From assembly GCA_041305185.1 (NCBI GenBank), contig JBFYLW010000065.1:1-63523 (forward strand): a stretch of DNA of 63,523 nt. The letters are read 5' to 3'. Below the pieces are notes generated by a model. It saw only the letters and a program-made list of their open reading frames with translations. It made no database searches and was not told the DNA's origin. This stretch comes from Nanobdellota archaeon (GTDB lineage Archaea > Nanobdellota > Nanobdellia > Woesearchaeales > ARS49). The translations under genes were made by a program, and so were the position numbers. Positions within the stretch are counted from its first letter, which is position 1. Every line of letters begins with the position of its first letter. Of this stretch, positions 33,756 to 43,830 are shown piece after piece.

Positions 33756-33831
33756 TCAATAATTGGGATTTATAAAGGTTTAGAACCAAAAGACACAAAC
33801 TTTTTAAAACCAGCACTGGTACACACACTTT

Positions 33832-36800
33832 ATGGAATTAACAGGGGTGCGGGAAAAGGCTGAGACCTTATGGGTGTTCTTAAAAAAACACGCATTCCTA
33901 ATAGCACTCCTAACAGTTCTAATATTACAATTCGTTCCAAACGGCAACGGAACATACCCTTGGGGCGGAATATGGATGCGAATGCAGGTAAAAGACCTGC
34001 CAATGGCAGAATCCGCAGCAGCATCAAGCGTGGAAAACTACATCACAAACCAAGTCAACACAGAAGTACAACAAAAATACCCCAACTTACCAGAAGAAAA
34101 CAGAAAAAAAGTCGCTGACGACCTAAAGAAAAAAATCAAAGAAGAAAACAAAGACCAATTCGCAAGCGAAACAAAAAGATTAGCCCAAGAAGTCAGAAAC
34201 CAGTATTCTTACGAAGAAAACAACCAAACATTCCTCTACATGCCAGACATAGACCCATACTTCTATCTACGATACGCAAGAAACATTGTAGAAAAAGGAC
34301 ACGTGTATGATGAATTAAAGGACGGAAAGCCATGGGACAACCACATGATAGCGCCAATAGGCGCACCAGCAGACCAAACGTGGCACGCACCAGTGCTCGC
34401 TTTCATCTACCGCATACACTCAATGTTTGACAAATCAACAACTCTAATGAATTCAGCATGCTATTTCCCAATCATATTCATTTTCCTATCATTAATATTC
34501 ACATTCCTCGTAGCATACAGAATCTCAGGACCAGTAGGAGGAATGTTCGCAACAACCTTACTAGCAATACTTCCAGCAGTCATGGGAAGAACACCCTGGG
34601 GACACGCAGACACAGACGCATACAACATATTCTTCCCAACACTAATCATCTGGCTATTATTCGAAGCATTATCTGCCAAAACAGTAAAAAAACAAGCAAT
34701 ATTCGGAGGACTAACAGGTTTAGCATTTGTTTGCTTCGCAAAATTCTGGATGGGCTGGTGGTACCTAATAGATTTTGTAGGTGCAGCATTCGCAATCGCA
34801 ATAATCGCAGACATAATAATGAATTCTGCTTTGCTAAAACAAGGATTCAACCATTTCTGGCAACACTCACAAACCAAAAAGTTTGTAATAATAGGAGTTT
34901 CACTTTTCGTTGTCGGAGCAGTTTTCTCAACATTCACAATAGGCTTTACAAACTTCTTCCCAGGACCAATCATCACAGCAATACAATCAACAGCACTAAA
35001 AGAAGCAGCAGCACCAGGACTCTGGCCAAACACACTAACAACCGTTGCAGAACTAAACCCAGGCTCAATAGCGGCCACGATAAACTCAGTAGGAGGCAAA
35101 CTAGTATTCCTAATAGGAATATTAGGAATCATACTATTACTTCTCAGAAAAGATGAAAAAGGAAAATACGACCTAACATACAGCGCACTGCTCGCCATAT
35201 GGTTCCTGGGAACAATGTACATGGCAATCAAAGGAACACGATTTATTTTACTAATCGGACCAGCATTCGCAATCGCATTCGGAGCAGGAGCAGGAATAAT
35301 ATACCAAAAAGTGTCAGTCCTCGCAGAAAAACACCTGCGCGTCCACAAAATAATAACAGGAGTGCTGATAATAGCAGTCATAGCAATAATTATCATCAAC
35401 CCTGCAAAAGCAGGAGTACACATGGCAAAAGACTCATACAACAGCGTAATAAATGATGTTCCACTCGTAAACGATGCATGGTGGAACACCCTAACAAAAA
35501 TCAAAGACAACAGCCAGCCAAACGCGATAATAAACTCATGGTGGGACTTCGGACACCACTTCAAATATATAGCAGACAGGGCAGTATCATTCGATGGAGC
35601 ATCACAAACACTCCCACACGCACACTGGGTAGGAAGAGTACTACAAACAGACAACGAAGAAGAAGCAATAGCGATATTACGAATGCTCGACTGCGGAGCA
35701 CACACAAGCTATGAAGTGGCACTCGAAACCCTCAAAGAACCACTAACAACAGTCGACTTCATAAAAAGCATAATCATGATGGACAAAGAAACAGCAAGAG
35801 AAGAAATACAAAAAGCAGGAGTGCCAGAAAAAGTATTAGAACTAACACACTGCAACCCGCCAGAAGACTTCTTCATAGCATCAGGAGACATGGTAAGCAA
35901 ATCAGGAGTGTGGGCGCACTTCGGACTATGGAATTTTGACAAAGCAGAAATATGGATAAAATGGCGCTTAATGGACGAGAAAACAGCAATTCCCAAAATG
36001 GCAGAAAGATTCAACATAACAGAAGACGCAGCCAAAAAATTGTACAAAGAAGCAAACAACCTTGACACAGAAGAAGCAGCAAACGCGTGGATAAGCCCAT
36101 GGCCGCATTACGTAATGCAAGACCCGGCATCATGCTCAACAGAAGGAGAACTGCTAAAGTGCGGAAGCATAACAATAAACATGACAGACGGGCAAGCATC
36201 ACTCAGAACAAACCAAGGCACAGGAAACCTCAACAAAGTAATCATCTACGACAAAAAAGGAAACAAAAAAGTGCACGAAACACAAGGCGGAAACAACGTA
36301 GTAGCAATCCTATGGCCAACAGCAAGCGGAATGAACGCAATAGCAGCATTCCCAGAATTAGCAGACAGCATATTCACACGCCTCTACTACATGGGCGGAC
36401 TCGGACTCAAACACTTCAAACCATTCGACACCCAAAGCCAAATATTCGGCGCAGGAATGATATACACCTACAAAATAGACTGGGAAAGCAATGAAAGCTA
36501 CATACCACCAGAACTCATGCCAAAAGAAAAAGTAGAACCAGGAGCACAAGTAACATTCAACTACATAGGATGGACAGAAGAAGGAATATTTGACAGCAGC
36601 ATAACAAACTGGAAAGAACAAAACATCACACAATACGACACCTTTGAAAACTTTGAAACAAAACCAATGACTTTCGTAGCAGGAAAAAGCATGATAATAC
36701 CAGGACTTGAAAGCAGAGTAACAGGAATGAAACCAGGAGAAACAAAAACAGTCACCATACCACCAGAAGAAGCATACGGCACAAACCCGGCAACACACGA

Positions 36801-36852
36801 ACTCGGCAACAAAACACTCAATTTCAAAATACAAATAAAAACAGTACAATAA
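33832..36852 (+). CDS. aglB: Archaeal oligosaccharyltransferase AglB (STT3 family) fused to a C-terminal FKBP-type peptidyl-prolyl isomerase domain
   Basis: Multi-TM N-terminal half with acidic loop motifs (HADTDAYN) and the WWDxG motif as SWWDFGHH. The last ~110 aa (about 36520-36849) read GAQVTFNYIGWTEEGIFDSS...FVAGKSMIIPGLESRVTGMKPGETKTVTIPPEEAYG...LNFKIQIKTV, which is FKBP-like. Confidence 0.85.
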   Translation: MELTGVREKAETLWVFLKKHAFLIALLTVLILQFVPNGNGTYPWGGIWMRMQVKDLPMAESAAASSVENYITNQVNTEVQQKYPNLPEENRKKVADDLKKKIKEENKDQFASETKRLAQEVRNQYSYEENNQTFLYMPDIDPYFYLRYARNIVEKGHVYDELKDGKPWDNHMIAPIGAPADQTWHAPVLAFIYRIHSMFDKSTTLMNSACYFPIIFIFLSLIFTFLVAYRISGPVGGMFATTLLAILPAVMGRTPWGHADTDAYNIFFPTLIIWLLFEALSAKTVKKQAIFGGLTGLAFVCFAKFWMGWWYLIDFVGAAFAIAIIADIIMNSALLKQGFNHFWQHSQTKKFVIIGVSLFVVGAVFSTFTIGFTNFFPGPIITAIQSTALKEAAAPGLWPNTLTTVAELNPGSIAATINSVGGKLVFLIGILGIILLLLRKDEKGKYDLTYSALLAIWFLGTMYMAIKGTRFILLIGPAFAIAFGAGAGIIYQKVSVLAEKHLRVHKIITGVLIIAVIAIIIINPAKAGVHMAKDSYNSVINDVPLVNDAWWNTLTKIKDNSQPNAIINSWWDFGHHFKYIADRAVSFDGASQTLPHAHWVGRVLQTDNEEEAIAILRMLDCGAHTSYEVALETLKEPLTTVDFIKSIIMMDKETAREEIQKAGVPEKVLELTHCNPPEDFFIASGDMVSKSGVWAHFGLWNFDKAEIWIKWRLMDEKTAIPKMAERFNITEDAAKKLYKEANNLDTEEAANAWISPWPHYVMQDPASCSTEGELLKCGSITINMTDGQASLRTNQGTGNLNKVIIYDKKGNKKVHETQGGNNVVAILWPTASGMNAIAAFPELADSIFTRLYYMGGLGLKHFKPFDTQSQIFGAGMIYTYKIDWESNESYIPPELMPKEKVEPGAQVTFNYIGWTEEGIFDSSITNWKEQNITQYDTFENFETKPMTFVAGKSMIIPGLESRVTGMKPGETKTVTIPPEEAYGTNPATHELGNKTLNFKIQIKTVQ

Positions 36853-36893
36853 TTCTGAAAAGTTGCCACTATGGAATAGTCACGTTACGAAAG

Positions 36894-36903
36894 TTTTAAA
36901 TAT
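36894..36903 (+). promoter_or_regulatory. TATA box of the first surface-cluster gene
   Basis: ttttaaatat lies 46 nt before the ATG at 36949, leaving a leader that carries GGGGGG (36937-36942). Confidence 0.45.
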
Positions 36904-36948
36904 CGGGGATATAAGACTACACTAATTAGTTATATTGGGGGGTAAAGA

Positions 36949-38025
36949 ATGACACTTACTGATCTTGTGAGAAAAGGAATTCTAACAGCTGTAGTTGGAG
37001 CAAGCGCACTAATAGCAAAAGATGCATCCGCACAAGGATTTGACAACAAACAAAATTGGGACAAGCCACAACAACAAGCATCACAAACATCTCCTGATGA
37101 AATGGATGCATCATTAACTGCAAGCGCGAAAACTGCACCAAAAGAAACAGCAATCAACATATCAGGATTCTTATCATACAAACACGACGCCATAACACCA
37201 AGCATATACGCAATAAGTTCGTGGCAAAGATTTGAAAATGATAATCCAATGGAAATTTCAGTAAACAGACTAATAACAAACTTCGGAGCATACCTGTGGC
37301 AGGCAAAAGACCTGGAATTATTTATCAACCCCGGAATAGGCGTTGAAAACCAACATTTCACAGGCGCCATAAAAAACAATGCGACCAAAATGATAGTAGG
37401 AGGAGATGCAGGACTTGCAGTTCCTGAAACAGGAACAAGAATATTAGTCGGAGTTTACGGCGGCATAGGACAATATGATGCAGAACTGCAAAGCGGATTC
37501 AAAACAAACGGACAATTTGACACATTCTTCTTAGGCATGAGCGCAACACAAAAACTCTTCGGAACAGGCAAAAAGCCAATACAAACCAAAGGAGAGTTCG
37601 ACCAAAAAGACATAGGAGAAGAATTCAGATACTCAATGCACGCAGCATTAGAAGCAATAACATCAATAGAAAACTACGGAGAACTCAGAAATATAACAGC
37701 AGGAAAACTGCGATTCTCACTACCAAACGTGCTAAACCTGCGTGAATATGGAAGAGACGCAAAAGGAAACATATATGCGAGAGGAACACGATGGCAGTTC
37801 ACACCATATGTAGAAATGGAGACTAGCGAAGCAAGAAGCAACATTTCAATAGCAGTAACAAACGCGAACAGGTATCGAGTCGGAATAACTGCTGAATTAG
37901 AGATCAACGACTATGTGGGAATCAGAGCCGGAACAGGATACCAATGGCACAGAGCTAACACTAACGGTCACATAGACGAAAAAAACGGCATAACACTAGA
38001 AGGATCGCTCGATATTAAACTCTAA
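36949..38025 (+). CDS. Secreted beta-rich protein of unknown function (porin-like sequence pattern)
   Basis: Signal-like N-terminus ...ILTAVVGASALIAKDASAQG. Gly/aromatic-rich alternating segments follow (GIRAGTGYQWHRA, ITLEGSLDIKL at the C-terminus). Confidence 0.6.
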   Translation: MTLTDLVRKGILTAVVGASALIAKDASAQGFDNKQNWDKPQQQASQTSPDEMDASLTASAKTAPKETAINISGFLSYKHDAITPSIYAISSWQRFENDNPMEISVNRLITNFGAYLWQAKDLELFINPGIGVENQHFTGAIKNNATKMIVGGDAGLAVPETGTRILVGVYGGIGQYDAELQSGFKTNGQFDTFFLGMSATQKLFGTGKKPIQTKGEFDQKDIGEEFRYSMHAALEAITSIENYGELRNITAGKLRFSLPNVLNLREYGRDAKGNIYARGTRWQFTPYVEMETSEARSNISIAVTNANRYRVGITAELEINDYVGIRAGTGYQWHRANTNGHIDEKNGITLEGSLDIKL

Positions 38026-38095
38026 GAAACATTTAAATATTAGTGCTACTCTGAAGTAGATATATATTGTATCTTATAGTAATGGGGGGAGAAAA

Positions 38096-39028
38096 ATGAG
38101 TTATACACAAAAAGCAAAAAGTTATGTTTCTAACACTGTCCGAGCAGCCGCACTGGTTGCAGGAGGAATAGCATTAGCTGTTCTTGCAGGCGGATGCAAA
38201 AGCACACCATCAGAATTGGAATTAAAAGCAGAAGCATACCGAACAGCAAGACAAACAGAAAAAACAACATATGAAGGAAAAGGAATATCAGAAAGAATAA
38301 AACACATCACAGAAAAACTCGCAGAAGCCAAAAAAGACGGCGCGATAAACCCAGCAACAAAAATGTACGAGCTGGACGAAATTATCACAGTCTATGAACA
38401 AAAAGCACGCCTTGAAAACGAAAGAAAAACATTGAAAGGCACTGATGATGAATCAAAAGCACAATTGGCCAAAATAGATGAACAATTAAACTTAGCCAAC
38501 CAATACATAACAGAACTGGCTAACAGCGACAGAGTAACAGGATACGTCATATTGAAAATACAAGAAGCACCAGGCATGCTGCCCGTAATCTCAGGACTGA
38601 TAAGCAACAACCACTTACAATTGCAAGGAACACTCGCAACACATGCACAAAACCTTGGCTTTTCAATTGAGGAAGCACTCAAAAAGAACCAAAGCGTTTA
38701 CGGAGAAGGTTTCGGCTGCACTCCAGGTCCAGTAAGAAGCGAGAGAAACAAACAACAGATAAGAGAAAGCAGCGTTGACGTTCCAAGAGAAAACTGGAAA
38801 AACCTCGCACAATTCTTCCCAGAAGTAAAAGACGGCGATACAGCCATTGGAAACGAGCTCAGAAACAAAGCTGGAGAAAGAATAACAGCAGCATCATTCG
38901 ATGATATGCTGGCAACCGGCAAAATAATCGGAGTACGCGTTGCCTATGTTGCAAAACCAGCAGAAACACAAGCAAAAACTGAAGCGCCTGCAGAAGTCAA
39001 ACCAGCAGAACTTGCTGAAAACAAATAA
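38096..39028 (+). CDS. Putative lipoprotein with a coiled-coil region
   Basis: Lipobox-like LAVLAGGC after a hydrophobic N-terminus. GGGGGG lies 6 nt before the ATG. Confidence 0.6.
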   Translation: MSYTQKAKSYVSNTVRAAALVAGGIALAVLAGGCKSTPSELELKAEAYRTARQTEKTTYEGKGISERIKHITEKLAEAKKDGAINPATKMYELDEIITVYEQKARLENERKTLKGTDDESKAQLAKIDEQLNLANQYITELANSDRVTGYVILKIQEAPGMLPVISGLISNNHLQLQGTLATHAQNLGFSIEEALKKNQSVYGEGFGCTPGPVRSERNKQQIRESSVDVPRENWKNLAQFFPEVKDGDTAIGNELRNKAGERITAASFDDMLATGKIIGVRVAYVAKPAETQAKTEAPAEVKPAELAENK

Positions 39029-39041
39029 TTTTTTTTATTTT
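39029..39041 (+). terminator. Oligo-T terminator
   Basis: A T8 run follows directly after the TAA at 39026-39028. Confidence 0.45.
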
Positions 39042-39065
39042 CATTAATTCAAAAAAGTGAAAAAA

Positions 39066-40112
39066 ATGAAAAAAACCAACACATTACCATTCATTTCCCT
39101 GCTAATAATAGCAGCCATGATTACTGCACCTCTGATAGTTGCAGACGCGTGGGATTCAGATGCCTGGGCAGTAACTGACTCAAGCTGGAGCGGAAACTCT
39201 TTCTCAGTCTTTGACTGGAGCTGGAGCGGAGACGCGTGGGCAGTAGATGATAACAGCTGGAGCGGCGACTCTTTTGCAGTAGACGATAACAGCTGGAGCG
39301 GTGATTCTTTCGCAGTAGATGATAACAGTTGGAGTGGAAGTTCAGATTACGGCAGTACAACAGGCATGGACACAACAACACCAAGCACGCCAGGAGCGAA
39401 TGACTTTGTAGAAGGACTAGGAGGAGTACCTCCAGGAGGACCACTACCACAGCCAGAACCATTCCCAACAAACGCAGACGCCAAATGGCAAAGTTTAGAT
39501 GACATAACAATATACCAAGGAGCAACATCAGGAACAACAATACAGCAAAACATATTCTCAAAATGCTCAGACCCTGATGACAAAAACCTCGAATTCAAAA
39601 TAACAAGCAAATCACAAAACTTCGAACTGGCATTCTCAGGAAGCGACCTCAAAATATACAACCTCAAAACAGCATTCATAGGAAAAGAAATAATAACAAT
39701 TGAATGCAACAAAGTACCAGAAAGCTTTGCATTAAACGTAATACCAAGACAAATAACACCAACACCGCCTGCAACAAGTTCAAGTGATGATGGAGACGGA
39801 ATCAGCGTGTTCATAGGAGCGATAAGACTGCCGGAAGAATCAACAGCAGGAGAACAAATCCCAATACTAATTTCTTTCAAAAACAGCGGCGATAAAAAGC
39901 TTGAAAACGTCAAAGCAGTAGTGGTAATAACAGACTTGGGCGTAAGAGCATCAATAGGCCCATTCGACCTGACAAAAGGAAAAAGCATAAGCAAAACAAT
40001 ATACGTGGAACTGCCTGAAGACACACAAACAGGAACATACACTGCAAGAATAACGATTGACAGCTCATCAGTCCACAGAGTAAAACACCGCGACGTAGAA
40101 GTCATATCTTAG
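39066..40112 (+). CDS. Secreted protein with Trp-rich DDNSWSGDSFAV repeats and a C-terminal CARDB/Ig-like domain
   Basis: Signal peptide MKKTNTLPFISLLIIAAMITAPLIVADA, then repeats, then a beta-sandwich-like tail (GEQIPILISFKNSGDKKLENVKAVVVITDLG...). Confidence 0.65.
   Translation: MKKTNTLPFISLLIIAAMITAPLIVADAWDSDAWAVTDSSWSGNSFSVFDWSWSGDAWAVDDNSWSGDSFAVDDNSWSGDSFAVDDNSWSGSSDYGSTTGMDTTTPSTPGANDFVEGLGGVPPGGPLPQPEPFPTNADAKWQSLDDITIYQGATSGTTIQQNIFSKCSDPDDKNLEFKITSKSQNFELAFSGSDLKIYNLKTAFIGKEIITIECNKVPESFALNVIPRQITPTPPATSSSDDGDGISVFIGAIRLPEESTAGEQIPILISFKNSGDKKLENVKAVVVITDLGVRASIGPFDLTKGKSISKTIYVELPEDTQTGTYTARITIDSSSVHRVKHRDVEVIS
39240..39347 (+). repeat. Three tandem 36-bp coding repeats, with degenerate copies upstream from about 39160
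   Basis: gcagtagatgataacagctggagcggcgactctttt / gcagtagacgataacagctggagcggtgattctttc / gcagtagatgataacagttggagtggaagttcagat. Confidence 0.85.
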
Positions 40113-40222
40113 AAAGCTTTTTATATAGGTTGTAACTGACAAGTAGTATTGAAGTTAGACTACTCTAGAATAGAAAAGAATTAATAGCAGAACAGTGTTT
40201 TGCACCGAGGGGGGATATAAAA

Positions 40223-41440
40223 ATGAAAAAAATTCACGCAATCACAGCATTGGCGCTCTTTTTAGCAATAATCAGCGCAGTTTCAGCACTGCCAGTCAAC
40301 CTTGAAGAGGTAGAAATCGACGGAACAGTACTGAAGGAAAACGCAGAAAACAGGCTCTCCCTTGAAAGAGGAGAAGACTACCAGGTAAGAATCAGGTTCA
40401 CAGCAACACAAGACATAACAGACGCAGAAGTCAGAGTGTTCGTTTCAGGATACGAGTACAGCGATATCAAAGACATTGAAGACAAAACAGCAGTATTTGA
40501 CGCAGAAACAAACGTAACCTACGTAAAAAAACTAAACATAGTCTTCCCAGATGATGTAGACACAGACGACTACAAATTAAGAGTCATAATCTCAGACAGG
40601 TACAACGACGAAAAAATAGCAAACTACAACATCAAACTCGACCTGCCAAGAAACGCACTAAAAATCGATGACATAATATTCAACCCATCAAACGGCGTAA
40701 AAGCAGGAAGCTCACTATTAACCACAGTAAGAATAGAAAACAGCGGAGAAAAAGACCAGAGCAGCGTCAAAGTCACAGTAAACATACCAGGCCTCGGCAT
40801 AAGCGCAACAGAATACATAGATGAAATAAACAATGACGATGACGAGGAAACAGAAGAAATATTCCTCAGAATACCAAAATGCGCAAAAGCAGGCAACTAC
40901 GACGCAACAATAGACGTTGAATTCTCAAACGGCAACCGAAAATTAACTGAAAAAGAAACAATACAAATCATTGCAGACGACACCTGCACAGAAGCATCAC
41001 CAAAAACAACCATAACACTCGGAAGCCAAATGCAAAATGTGGAATCAGGACAAACAGCAATATTCCCAATCACTGTAACAAATGCAGGCAAAACCAGCAA
41101 AACGTTCGTTGTAACAGTGCCAAGCGCAGACTGGGCAACAATAACAATAACGCCAACCAGCACACTCGTTGTTCCAGCTGGACAAGCACAAACAATATTC
41201 GTAAACGTGCAAACAAACAAAGAAACACCATCAGGAGCACACTCACTAACAGCAACAGTCCAATCTGACGGCAAAACAGAAGAGCTGACACTAACTTCAA
41301 CAGTGCTGCACTCAAAAACAACAGCACGCACAGTGTTCGAAGTAATATTCATCGTACTAGTGGTCCTGCTAGCAATAATCGGCATAGTACTCGCAATTGC
41401 GCACCTACGCAACAAAGGGGAAGCCGAAACATACTACTAA
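40223..41440 (+). CDS. Surface protein with CARDB/Ig-like repeats and a C-terminal TM anchor (S-layer-like candidate)
   Basis: Signal peptide, repeated beta-sandwich-like segments (LLTTVRIENSGEKDQSSVKVTVNIPGLG; TAIFPITVTNAGKTSKTFVV), and a C-terminal hydrophobic helix followed by HLRNKGE. Confidence 0.65.
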   Translation: MKKIHAITALALFLAIISAVSALPVNLEEVEIDGTVLKENAENRLSLERGEDYQVRIRFTATQDITDAEVRVFVSGYEYSDIKDIEDKTAVFDAETNVTYVKKLNIVFPDDVDTDDYKLRVIISDRYNDEKIANYNIKLDLPRNALKIDDIIFNPSNGVKAGSSLLTTVRIENSGEKDQSSVKVTVNIPGLGISATEYIDEINNDDDEETEEIFLRIPKCAKAGNYDATIDVEFSNGNRKLTEKETIQIIADDTCTEASPKTTITLGSQMQNVESGQTAIFPITVTNAGKTSKTFVVTVPSADWATITITPTSTLVVPAGQAQTIFVNVQTNKETPSGAHSLTATVQSDGKTEELTLTSTVLHSKTTARTVFEVIFIVLVVLLAIIGIVLAIAHLRNKGEAETYY

Positions 41441-41466
41441 AAAAATAACACGGTTCGGGGGGACCA

Positions 41467-43830
41467 ATGCAAAAAGCAATCATTATCATTTTGCTCATAG
41501 CATTACTTCTACCAAGCGTCAGCGCTGAATTTTTGGCATTCGGAGACCTTGAAATAAAAACAGGACCCTGCCAATCAGAAATAAGAAACCTGACAATCCA
41601 AAACACAGGACAACAAGCAACATACAGCATAACAGTCGACGGAGAAGGAAGCGACTACATCACATTCTCAGCAATCAATTTTGCGCTAAAAGCAGGACAA
41701 AAAGCACTAATCAACAGCCACTACACAATACCCTGCAACGCAAAACCAGGAACATATCCATTATCAATCTACTTTTCCGACGGAGAAATAGAACAACAAC
41801 TCGACCAGCAAATAACAATAGAACTTTCTGACAACATAAACATAACAGCCACAAACACCAGCGCAGTAATAACGCCCTGCGACACCGCAGCATACTCAAT
41901 AAACCTGCACAACCCGCTCAACTTCACAGAAATCTACACAATAACAGCAACAGGACACCCCAATGTCCACGTCAGCGAGAAACAAGCAGTACTCAAAGGA
42001 GGAGAAAGAAAAAACATAATCATAAGCGCAACACCAGACGACTGCACACAATCAGGCAGTTTCCCGCTAAAAACAGAATTCACAACTGAAAAATCACACC
42101 AGCAGAAAGAACAACTCCTGGAATTAATAATAAAATCAACAGACATACCAATACTCGCAGAGAGCATAGACAAAATCAGAACAGACTACACAGACAGCAC
42201 AGCAGAACTAACAATCGAAAACACTGGAGACAGAACAACACAATATATTCTCACTGTAGAAGGAGCAGATTGGGCAACAATAAGCCCAAAACAAGTATCA
42301 CTAAGCCCAGGACAAACAAAAACATTAGCGCTCAGACTAACACCAAAAACAGAAACGCCAAAAGGAAACTATCCACTCATACTAACAGCAACAGTTGAAG
42401 AAACAGGAATAAAATACGGCAAAGAACTTCTAGTAAAACTACAGCCACCAACATTCATCGAGAAAAACCCGGCAATTGTAATAGCAATAGCAATAATCAT
42501 ACTCGCAATAATAGCAGGAGCATACTTTGTCATCAAATACTTCAAAAGCCAAGCATTCAAAGAAGCATACAGAAAATGGAAAGAAAAAAGAGAAGCAAAA
42601 AGAAAAGCAAAAGAACAGAAAAAAGCAGAATTACTCAAAAAACAACAAGAACAACAAAAAAAAGAACATGAAAGAAAACAAGCAGAAAAAGAACACCTCA
42701 AAAAACAACTACAAAAACAAATCGAACAAGACTACAAAAAAGAATACCACGTAATAGCCAAAAAACAACTGGTAACAGGAAAAACAAAAACAAACTGGAA
42801 CAAGATATTTGCGGTAATAATCGGAATCGCAATAATACTCCTAATAATGTCGTTCTGGAGCGTAATCTCGCCAAACATAACGTACGTAGCTCTTGGATTG
42901 ATAATACTTGCAGCAATCTACCTTGCACACAAAATATCAAGATTAACAATCATAAAAGCCAAATGGAAACTGCTTTTAGAAAAACAAGAAACAAGCATAA
43001 CCTGCTGGAAAAAAGGACTCTCACTGCTAAACATCACAGCAAAAAAACCAATCAAAAACCTCAAACTAATAATAAAAAGAACAAAAGCAAGAATAGCGCC
43101 ATCACCAGCAGTATACCGAACATTCACGATAAAAACAAACACTCCAGAAGAAGCCCTGGCATTAAAAGCAACAATCACAGTATCCAAAAAATGGATAGCA
43201 TTCAAAAAAGTAAATATAGACGACATAAAACTCGCAAGATACAACAACCAAAACTGGACAACAATACCGCTCAAAAAAACAGGCGAAAACAAACAATACG
43301 TACACTTCACAGCAGACATCAAAACAGGAGCATACAGCATCTACACAAAACCACCAAAACAAACAACAAATCACACAAAAAAACTAATCTGGGGACTAAT
43401 CGCAATAGCAATAATCGCAGGAATAGCAGTCATACTCACACCAAACCCGGCACCAATAGCACACGGAATACAACCACAAACCTGGCAGCAAGACACAGTA
43501 CACAGAATAGACCTAAGCAAATACTTCAGCGACCCAGATGACGACAAACTCACCTTCACAACAACAGAAACAAAAAACGTGCTAATAGAAATATCAGGAA
43601 ACACAGCTTACATCACACCCAAAACCGGATGGAATGGAGAAGAAAAAGTAAGATTCATAGCAAACGACGGAAAAGGAGGACAGGCGAGCAGCAACACAGT
43701 CTCCCTCAGAGTACGAAGACAAATAATACCAACCTGGATACAACCGTACATAGCACTAATACTGGCAATACTAACCGCGATTTTCTTAATCTGGACAGCA
43801 GTATCACAACGTTCACAAAAGAAGAAATAA
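41467..43830 (+). CDS. Large multi-domain membrane/surface protein (Ig-like domains, several TM helices, Lys/Glu-rich coiled coil, cadherin-like DPDDD domain)
   Basis: Signal peptide; NxT-rich Ig-like segments; KEKREAKRKAKEQKKAELLKKQQEQQKKEHERKQAEKEH; DPDDDKLTFTTTE...FIANDGKGG; terminal TM helix. Confidence 0.65.
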   Translation: MQKAIIIILLIALLLPSVSAEFLAFGDLEIKTGPCQSEIRNLTIQNTGQQATYSITVDGEGSDYITFSAINFALKAGQKALINSHYTIPCNAKPGTYPLSIYFSDGEIEQQLDQQITIELSDNINITATNTSAVITPCDTAAYSINLHNPLNFTEIYTITATGHPNVHVSEKQAVLKGGERKNIIISATPDDCTQSGSFPLKTEFTTEKSHQQKEQLLELIIKSTDIPILAESIDKIRTDYTDSTAELTIENTGDRTTQYILTVEGADWATISPKQVSLSPGQTKTLALRLTPKTETPKGNYPLILTATVEETGIKYGKELLVKLQPPTFIEKNPAIVIAIAIIILAIIAGAYFVIKYFKSQAFKEAYRKWKEKREAKRKAKEQKKAELLKKQQEQQKKEHERKQAEKEHLKKQLQKQIEQDYKKEYHVIAKKQLVTGKTKTNWNKIFAVIIGIAIILLIMSFWSVISPNITYVALGLIILAAIYLAHKISRLTIIKAKWKLLLEKQETSITCWKKGLSLLNITAKKPIKNLKLIIKRTKARIAPSPAVYRTFTIKTNTPEEALALKATITVSKKWIAFKKVNIDDIKLARYNNQNWTTIPLKKTGENKQYVHFTADIKTGAYSIYTKPPKQTTNHTKKLIWGLIAIAIIAGIAVILTPNPAPIAHGIQPQTWQQDTVHRIDLSKYFSDPDDDKLTFTTTETKNVLIEISGNTAYITPKTGWNGEEKVRFIANDGKGGQASSNTVSLRVRRQIIPTWIQPYIALILAILTAIFLIWTAVSQRSQKKK

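Follow-up and report, generated by a model that had tools for sequence, protein, structure and literature searches.

An archaeal oligosaccharyltransferase AglB that carries an FKBP-type prolyl isomerase domain in the same chain

In every solved oligosaccharyltransferase (OST), the domain that bears the WWDFG motif lies on the periplasmic, lumenal or external side of the membrane. We know of no solved or described AglB, PglB or STT3 that has a folding-catalyst domain in the same chain. Peptidyl-prolyl isomerases (PPIases) such as PrsA of Bacillus subtilis and the periplasmic FkpA and SurA work at the outer face of the cytoplasmic membrane, an ATP-free site at which secreted proteins arrive unfolded. 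At the human translocon, membrane-anchored FKBP11 stands beside OST-A on the lumenal face, topologically the outside (PDB 9N9J; PMC12804085). Here we analysed a stretch of 63,523 nt from a Nanobdellota archaeon (GTDB lineage Nanobdellota; Nanobdellia; Woesearchaeales; ARS49; GenBank assembly GCA_041305185.1, contig JBFYLW010000065.1, positions 1 to 63,523; hereafter the window), in which a single gene, aglB-FKBP, encodes an AglB-type OST joined to an FKBP-type PPIase. Both domains are well known; for the joined architecture we found no published description.

The gene (33832-36852, plus strand) is one uninterrupted frame of 1006 amino acids (aa) without internal stops, and the 1.12-Mb genome (95% complete) has no other gene of the STT3 family. 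Pfam placed the STT3 N-terminal family (PF02516) at aa 135-520 (E 3.2e-31; 109.7 bits vs a cut-off of 24.5), the STT3/PglB/AglB core (PF21436) at aa 567-618 (E 4.6e-6; 27.6 bits vs 23) and FKBP_C at aa 898-1002 (E 4.1e-17; 62.7 bits vs 21.1; profile positions 2-93 of 94). The FKBP_C match is far beyond chance, and when the genome's frames were searched with this profile the AglB tail scored 67.3 bits. A phmmer search against PDB sequences returned STT3A and PglB for the front part and FKBPs for the tail. A first-pass annotation, made from the sequence alone, had read the frame as an STT3/AglB core with an FKBP tail; this reading held, and the strings that it quoted are all present, namely SWWDFGHH, VTFNYIGWTEEGIFDSS (aa 907-923), FVAGKSMIIPGLESRVTGMKPGE, IPPEEAYG and LNFKIQIKTV. 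Membership of the archaeosortase-A-associated STT3 subfamily TIGR04154 was ruled out by a score far under the cut-off (41.4 vs 450 bits). The gene and its parts, with transmembrane (TM) helices taken from hydropathy and from the AlphaFold2 (AF2) model described below, are as follows.

33832-36852, plus strand: aglB-FKBP gene, 1006 codons and a TAA stop
33832-35406, plus strand: membrane (GT-C) core, aa 1-525 (Pfam STT3, hydropathy, AF2 helices, Z 28-29 to STT3/AglB), with TM1 at about aa 13-32 and the last TM helix at aa 506-522
34240-34260, plus strand: first acidic DxD-type motif, in outer loop 1, MPDIDPY, aa 137-143 (D141 invariant)
34603-34623, plus strand: second acidic motif, HADTDAY, aa 258-264 (D260 and D262 invariant)
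35041-35052, plus strand: TIXE/SVSE-type motif in outer loop 5, TVAE, aa 404-407 (T404, V405, A406 and E407 invariant)
35407-36486, plus strand: extracytoplasmic globular domain of AglB, aa 526-885, ending in ...YKIDWE (Pfam STT3-PglB_core at 567-618, invariant residues, superposition on C-terminal domains of other OSTs given below)
35539-35553, plus strand: WWDFG, aa 570-574, within SWWDFGHH, aa 569-576
35887-35913, plus strand: invariant D686/K690/W694 block of the globular domain
36487-36522, plus strand: linker SNESYIPPELMP, aa 886-897, without regular secondary structure and with the lowest conservation (mean pairwise identity 0.29)
36523-36849, plus strand: FKBP-type PPIase domain, aa 898-1006 (Pfam FKBP_C, 1ix5 alignment, conservation in 102 homologues, Z 14.8 to SlyD)

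With the known OSTs of family GT66 (A. fulgidus AglB-L, 3WAK/5GMY/7E9S; C. lari PglB, 3RCE/5OGL/6GXC; human and yeast STT3) the protein shares the membrane core and outer catalytic domain (Z 24-29), the invariant acidic loop motifs, the TVAE motif of loop 5 and WWDFG, and its locus likewise lies within a glycosyltransferase gene cluster. It differs from the solved enzymes in its low identity to them (14-17%) and in an extra helical insert of about 80 aa in outer loop 1 (33964-34206, aa 45-125), which is a feature of this AglB clade. The insert contains YPNLP (aa 83-87), of which P84, L86 and P87 are invariant; tail-less and parvulin-tailed relatives have the motif too.

Neither full-text literature searches nor targeted reading of reviews turned up an account of a fusion between an OST and a PPIase, in line with the first-pass remark that none was known. 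Two reviews, one of archaeal N-glycosylation and one of archaeal surface biogenesis, make no mention of prolyl isomerases. In public records such proteins bear automatic names only ('FKBP-type peptidyl-prolyl cis-trans isomerase', 'peptidylprolyl isomerase' or 'STT3 domain-containing protein').

An AF2 model of the full protein, built from an alignment of 65 homologues, had a mean predicted local distance difference test score (pLDDT) of 91 and a predicted template-modelling score (pTM) of 0.83, with every segment at 50 or above. Residues ~10-890 superposed on STT3/AglB with Z 28-29 and a root-mean-square deviation (rmsd) of 3.5-4.2 over 550-570 residues (yeast STT3: Z 28.5), and a Foldseek search gave the OST fold match at E 4.5e-22. 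The individual superpositions were as follows.

Human STT3A: Z 29.3, rmsd 3.6, 563 aligned residues
A. fulgidus AglB (3wak): Z 28.0, rmsd 4.2, 573 aligned residues
C. lari PglB (6gxc): Z 25.3, rmsd 4.5, 638 aligned residues

The outer domain of AglB matched the C-terminal domains of PglB and AfAglB-S2 at ranks 31 and 36 of the structure superposition. The tail adopts the FKBP fold in the model, with a five-stranded sheet around a short helix. Its residues 899-1006 superposed on Thermus thermophilus SlyD with Z 14.8 and rmsd 0.8 over 85 residues and on Methanocaldococcus jannaschii FKBP26 with Z 14.2, and Foldseek gave template-modelling scores of 0.79 to FKBP13 and 0.74 to FKBP12. C-terminal of aa 522, no hydrophobic segment was detected by hydropathy and no membrane-like helix follows aa 506-522 in the model. 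Since no membrane helix comes after aa 522, the FKBP tail lies on the side of the WWDFG domain. This topology, together with the fold match to PglB, AglB and STT3, agrees with the first-pass proposal that the tail sits outside the cell with the catalytic domain.

Both halves appear intact. Across 65 fusion proteins, D141, D260, D262, E407, W570, W571, D572, G574, D686 and K690 are invariant, and D686-M687-x-x-K690-x-x-x-W694 is invariant or nearly so as a whole. On the basis of motif, we take MPDIDPY, HADTDAY and TVAE to contain the metal- and acceptor-binding residues of PglB/AglB. The D686/K690/W694 spacing fits neither the DK nor the MI motif of the Ser/Thr pocket exactly in its textbook form. 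The OST half is predicted to be functional, because its catalytic motifs are invariant and it is the sole STT3 of a genome of 95% completeness.

The pocket of the FKBP tail consists of Y911, F920, D921, M946, F948, I955, I956, L959, Y982 and F998. Its conservation was counted in 102 FKBP-tailed full-length homologues, and the kept residues Y911, F920, D921, F948, I955, I956, Y982 and F998 are 84-100% conserved. Equivalents in FKBP12, mapped by motif, are listed with the counts.

Y911, FKBP12 Y26: 101 of 102
F920, FKBP12 F36: 97 of 102
D921, FKBP12 D37: 102 of 102
F948, FKBP12 F48: 84 of 102
I956, FKBP12 I56: 86 of 102
L959, FKBP12 W59: F in 89 and L in 12 of 102
Y982, FKBP12 Y82: 101 of 102
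F998, FKBP12 F99: 100 of 102

Mean pairwise identity among the 102 homologues was 0.49 in the FKBP domain, 0.46 in the outer AglB domain, 0.42 in the membrane core and 0.29 in the linker. The tail is thus constrained at least as much as the enzyme core, and its catalytic pocket is under purifying selection. The significant Pfam match, the fold match and the intact pocket all bear out the first-pass identification of the tail as a bona fide FKBP.

Among known FKBPs, the tail resembles archaeal FKBP17 of M. thermolithotrophicus (1IX5), FKBP26 of M. jannaschii (3PRB) and SlyD of T. thermophilus (3CGM) in fold (Z 14-15) and sequence (30-32% identity). The closest solved relative of its N-terminal half is FKBP17 (1ix5), and the archaeal bulge insert is common to both. 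As in archaeal short-type FKBPs, this insert follows the FDSS motif and precedes the next strand; a motif of the IPGFE/IPGLE type replaces W59 of FKBP12. In the AglB tail the bulge spans aa ~924-944 and carries a family-conserved sequon, N931-I-T, which is kept in 79 of the 102 tails; a second sequon, N993-K-T, corresponds to the general FKBP 'NATL' motif and is uninformative on glycosylation. After AYG, the last strand begins following a stretch of just 13 residues. FKBP17, FKBP26 and SlyD are cytoplasmic and contain an insert-in-flap (IF) chaperone domain, which in this group comes after the AYG motif, whereas the AglB tail is IF-less, covalently attached to an enzyme and, as predicted above, extracytoplasmic. 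We rejected its assignment as a SlyD/archaeal FKBP17-type member, to which it is related but from which the missing IF domain sets it apart.

To place the fusion among other genomes, we searched protein databases with aa 620-1006 as query. The search returned a 98%-identical protein of 1006 aa on a contig of another metagenome assembly and about 95 further clusters of STT3+FKBP_C architecture at 33-63% identity, some of them on contigs of 250-875 kb. Altogether the architecture occurs in more than 100 protein clusters (33-98% identity). In a sample of 150 GTDB species genomes of the order, drawn evenly over ~136 families, 16 species had the FKBP fusion, 14 of them in frames of at least 1000 aa and 2 in shorter frames, one of which (G047) proved on reading to be frameshifted. 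Within its own family the fusion was present in 17 of 24 members (16 of 23 if the unpublished genome G325 is left out); three other families of the order had it in 7 of 7, 5 of 5 and 2 of 2 members, and two further families in one species each. Two more unpublished genomes, G121 and G132, support none of the claims made here. The first-pass annotation had proposed a survey of AglB homologues in DPANN and other archaea for the same fusion; in the genomes searched it was confined to this one order, and in a sample of 300 genomes of the phylum the sole match from another order was a frame of 297 aa.

An assembly error or a frameshift that joined aglB to an adjoining FKBP gene could in principle produce such a frame, and one relative does have the gene split. 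In this 76%-complete metagenome-assembled genome (G047; locus L015, contig G047:C17, 2..1857), aglB-FKBP is frameshifted inside the outer domain near ...LNLTHCEPP, so that the gene has either been misread in sequencing or become a pseudogene. Against an artefact stand the more than 100 independent clusters with unbroken architecture, some of them on contigs of up to 875 kb, as do the linker and junction, which are conserved in frame, and a close stand-alone form of the tail beside aglB was seen nowhere in our searches. Because the architecture recurs in so many clusters from independent assemblies, the 1006-aa fusion appears to be no assembly artefact, and this explanation is effectively refuted.

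An exhaustive phmmer search for split forms gave mostly AglB fragments and one singleton, P0262, from a 3-kb JGI metagenome contig. This protein of 150 aa has the AglB-tail subtype of FKBP (NYIGW...FDSSIVNW) on its own, behind the lipoprotein signal LIVGC, and it is the only plausible split form that we saw; all its matches in the 150 genomes of the order were AglB tails. Its lipoprotein signal fits an extracytoplasmic workplace for the subtype. A word-based search for relatives of the tail of 62-200 aa found only two signal-peptide-bearing SlyD-like FKBPs with IF domains.

The FKBP domain is not the only PPIase found at this position. Three homologues (P0096, P0100 and P0105) have the same ...YKIDWxG junction followed by a PpiC/parvulin domain (Rotamase_3, E 1e-23 to 1e-27). 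The parvulin tails retain their His motifs (HILV ... GYHII). About 50 parvulin-tailed clusters were among the best 120 of a search seeded with P0096, and of the 150 species sampled from the order, 13 had a parvulin tail in a frame of at least 1000 aa. We computed a FastTree phylogeny from the AglB core only (columns equivalent to aa 130-885), using 223 full-length proteins after exclusion of 8 fragments. These comprised 102 FKBP tails, 48 parvulin tails and 73 others, proportions that are biased since the sequence sets were gathered with tail-containing queries. On the tree, which is unrooted so that gain and loss are indistinguishable, a minimum of 18 changes of tail type is needed; if only well-supported branches are counted, at least 7 changes are required for FKBP and at least 6 for parvulin. 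An IQ-TREE analysis of a smaller set agreed. FKBP and parvulin have been exchanged repeatedly at the same site of AglB. What the two tails have in common is prolyl-isomerase chemistry.

The 73 other tails are short or acidic and of low complexity, with 6.8 NxS/T sequons per 100 aa. Acidic low-complexity tails of 50-110 aa occur in P0099, P0133, P0139, P0154, P0155, P0157 and others, and that of P0155 has near-perfect repeats. Such tails are probably heavily self-glycosylated. In P0084 the FKBP tail has decayed: the start (NFIGW...FDSSIINW) is retained, the second half is unrecognisable and Pfam finds no match, as if the tail had been caught in the course of being lost. None of the 223 full-length homologues of this sample had a disulfide-forming domain in place of the tail.

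We consider it somewhat probable (about 0.6) that AglB-FKBP acts as a tethered extracytoplasmic foldase or holdase on the substrates of AglB. The main argument for this reading is that one and the same position in AglB has taken up two unrelated PPIase folds; in addition, the FKBP pocket is under strict purifying selection. The arrangement suggests that sugar attachment and the folding of exported proteins are physically coupled. The first-pass annotation had proposed a coupling of N-glycosylation to proline-limited folding. That idea is strengthened because sister lineages bear an unrelated PPIase, the parvulin, at the same position; its functional side we infer, as we do PPIase activity, action on AglB substrates and an effect on glycosylation or folding.

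In the proposed mechanism, the gene product would be the organism's single OST, with the FKBP-type PPIase joined to the end of its catalytic domain. AglB would bind unfolded exported polypeptides at N-x-S/T sequons and glycosylate them on the outer face of the membrane, and the 12-residue linker would keep the FKBP domain within a few nanometres of the acceptor site. From there the FKBP domain could bind Xaa-Pro segments of the chains that AglB handles. One option is that faster cis/trans isomerisation would let glycosylated surface proteins fold quickly in a compartment free of ATP; another is that the FKBP would hold chains transiently and so leave sequons accessible. AglB would provide substrate binding and membrane anchoring, as the IF domain or a lipid anchor does in free FKBPs. 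The position at the outer face of the cytoplasmic membrane is that of PrsA, FkpA and SurA, and PrsA-like proteins occur in this order. PrsA differs in being a parvulin-type lipoprotein with a chaperone domain of its own and no tie to a modifying enzyme, whereas here the anchor would be the OST itself.

A further-reaching proposal makes the PPIase tail a genuine accessory module of a prokaryotic OST, one which catches or isomerises Xaa-Pro segments of the acceptor, widens or speeds the use of sequons and couples transfer to folding. It would be a single-chain archaeal counterpart of the eukaryotic OST accessory subunits Ost3/Ost6 and FKBP11, invented independently and at least twice (FKBP and parvulin). 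We regard this as possible but put it forward tentatively. Like the tail, Ost3/Ost6 (TUSC3/MagT1) and FKBP11/CCDC134 place a folding-related module by the active site of STT3, where it handles the acceptor polypeptide, and FKBP11 belongs to the same fold family. Unlike the tail, Ost3/Ost6 and FKBP11 are separate subunits, and Ost3/Ost6 are thioredoxin-like and act on disulfides. The likeness would be convergence, with no evolutionary link implied.

Several findings weigh against a tethered foldase. The position of W59 in FKBP12 is L in this tail and F in most of its relatives, as in archaeal FKBPs and SlyD. The IF chaperone domain is absent (the 1ix5 alignment skips from residue 84 to 128, leaving out 85-127), and in SlyD-type and archaeal FKBPs this module is the source of activity on protein substrates. 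Many close relatives, G175 and G222 of the same family among them, have no PPIase but a short or an acidic, sequon-rich C-terminus, and because they do without it the PPIase tail is dispensable. A lipoprotein-type cyclophilin encoded elsewhere in the genome (see below) could serve general extracytoplasmic folding. In the human complex, FKBP11 is an adaptor whose site is buried by CCDC134, and the authors argue against an isomerase role (PMC12804085).

The human case gives weight to a non-catalytic alternative, in which the pocket of the FKBP domain binds a partner or substrate and thereby regulates the choice of sequons or recruits a surface factor. The missing IF domain points the same way, binding alone would predict pocket conservation equally well, and the confidence of the model (linker pLDDT 86-94, pTM 0.83) hints at a fixed, docked position instead of a free tether. 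We nevertheless think such an adaptor or holdase rather unlikely. The swap with parvulin, which shares only the recognition and isomerisation of the prolyl bond, argues for a generic proline-directed function and not for a specific partner interface; the parvulin tails keep their His motifs; and no conserved partner gene was seen beside aglB, save one for a family 2 glycosyltransferase (GT2). The docked appearance of the tail would also suit a role in the folding or switching of AglB itself, possibly at proline-bearing outer loops such as YPNLP, whose invariant residues lie on the outer face. YPNLP and the rest of the core are, however, equally conserved in relatives that have no PPIase, and the many losses and exchanges of the tail have left no visible compensating change, which makes self-chaperoning distinctly improbable.

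Finally, AglB could be a mere anchor, an abundant membrane protein that carries a general foldase in a reduced genome, unlinked to glycosylation. Free membrane-anchored foldases seem common in the order: PrsA-like parvulin frames of 300-700 aa, three of which were read, are suggested in 73 of the 150 species, and the lipoprotein P0262 shows that the same FKBP subtype can have another anchor. Of the 16 FKBP-fusion genomes only 2 have PrsA-like frames, and the genome studied here has none, so the fused FKBP may replace PrsA-like proteins; this anticorrelation, seen among kin genomes, is suggestive only. Against this, a PrsA-like gene is present alongside the fusion in 9 of the 13 genomes with a parvulin tail, and the two PPIases were repeatedly fixed at the same C-terminal point of AglB and not on other membrane proteins. 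We hold the anchor explanation to be improbable, and the evidence does not cleanly separate it from a tethered foldase that acts on AglB's substrates.

The tethered-foldase reading touches on two wider matters. The folding of extracytoplasmic proteins in archaea is an almost undescribed field, and in all domains of life it is still to be explained how OSTs reach their sequons ahead of substrate folding. FKBP-tailed, parvulin-tailed and tail-less close relatives form a natural comparative system for the coupling of isomerisation to N-glycosylation, and a natural single-chain OST-PPIase would be a compact enzyme for glyco-engineering. FKBP11, recently found next to human OST-A, offers a parallel.

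At the locus, the genes upstream of aglB-FKBP and divergent from it encode a GT2, a glycosyltransferase of family 4 (GT4), a second GT2, an NAD-epimerase and a second GT4. The following element precedes the gene and suggests a putative archaeal promoter of the leaderless type.

33802-33810, plus strand: TATA-like box TTTTTAAAA, ~26 nt upstream of the aglB ATG, read in the sequence

Five genes follow downstream. They were described at first pass as secreted, NxT/S-rich surface proteins and as plausible clients of the fusion. Signal-like N-termini and Ig-like/CARDB/NEW3/Big_9 domains agree with secreted-like surface proteins. Their sequon densities are 1.12, 0.32, 0, 0.25 and 1.02 per 100 aa (genome median 0.35, 90th percentile 1.12), and only two of the five can be called sequon-rich. 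As special client candidates they did not hold up, given the three that are not sequon-rich, the first gene's own TATA-like box (TTTTAAATA, ~50 nt upstream of its ATG) and the orientation of aglB in two family-mates. In these two genomes, a genus-mate and a family-mate (G168 and G156; loci L012 and L013), the same surface and glycosyltransferase genes flank aglB-FKBP and aglB is flipped, being co-directional with the glycosyltransferase genes and divergent from the surface genes, the opposite of the arrangement here (33832-43830). In a more distant fusion genome, only the aglB-GT2 pair is retained. A tract of six G (36937-36942) lies just 5' of the ATG of the first surface-protein gene.

Elsewhere the genome encodes three further PPIases. 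The free FKBP has 223 aa and an IF domain, has no signal and is 27% identical to the AglB tail, an identity at which we rejected the tail as a recent duplicate of it. The parvulin has 93 aa and is likewise signal-less. The cyclophilin (215 aa; L008 1489..2136, minus strand, equal to G000:C92) starts with a signal of lipoprotein type, MKYAVLLLVLLVAC, contains an acidic linker and is predicted to be a second, free extracytoplasmic PPIase.

The three PrsA-like foldases that were read in other genomes of the order (L009, G148:C4; L010, G021:C8; L011, G142:C3) have 342-449 aa and consist of an N-terminal TM anchor, SurA_N-like helices and a parvulin domain. Two of the three also have a C-terminal CxxC (thioredoxin-like) domain. 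The parvulin domains of the three share 55-64% identity with the parvulin tail of AglB.

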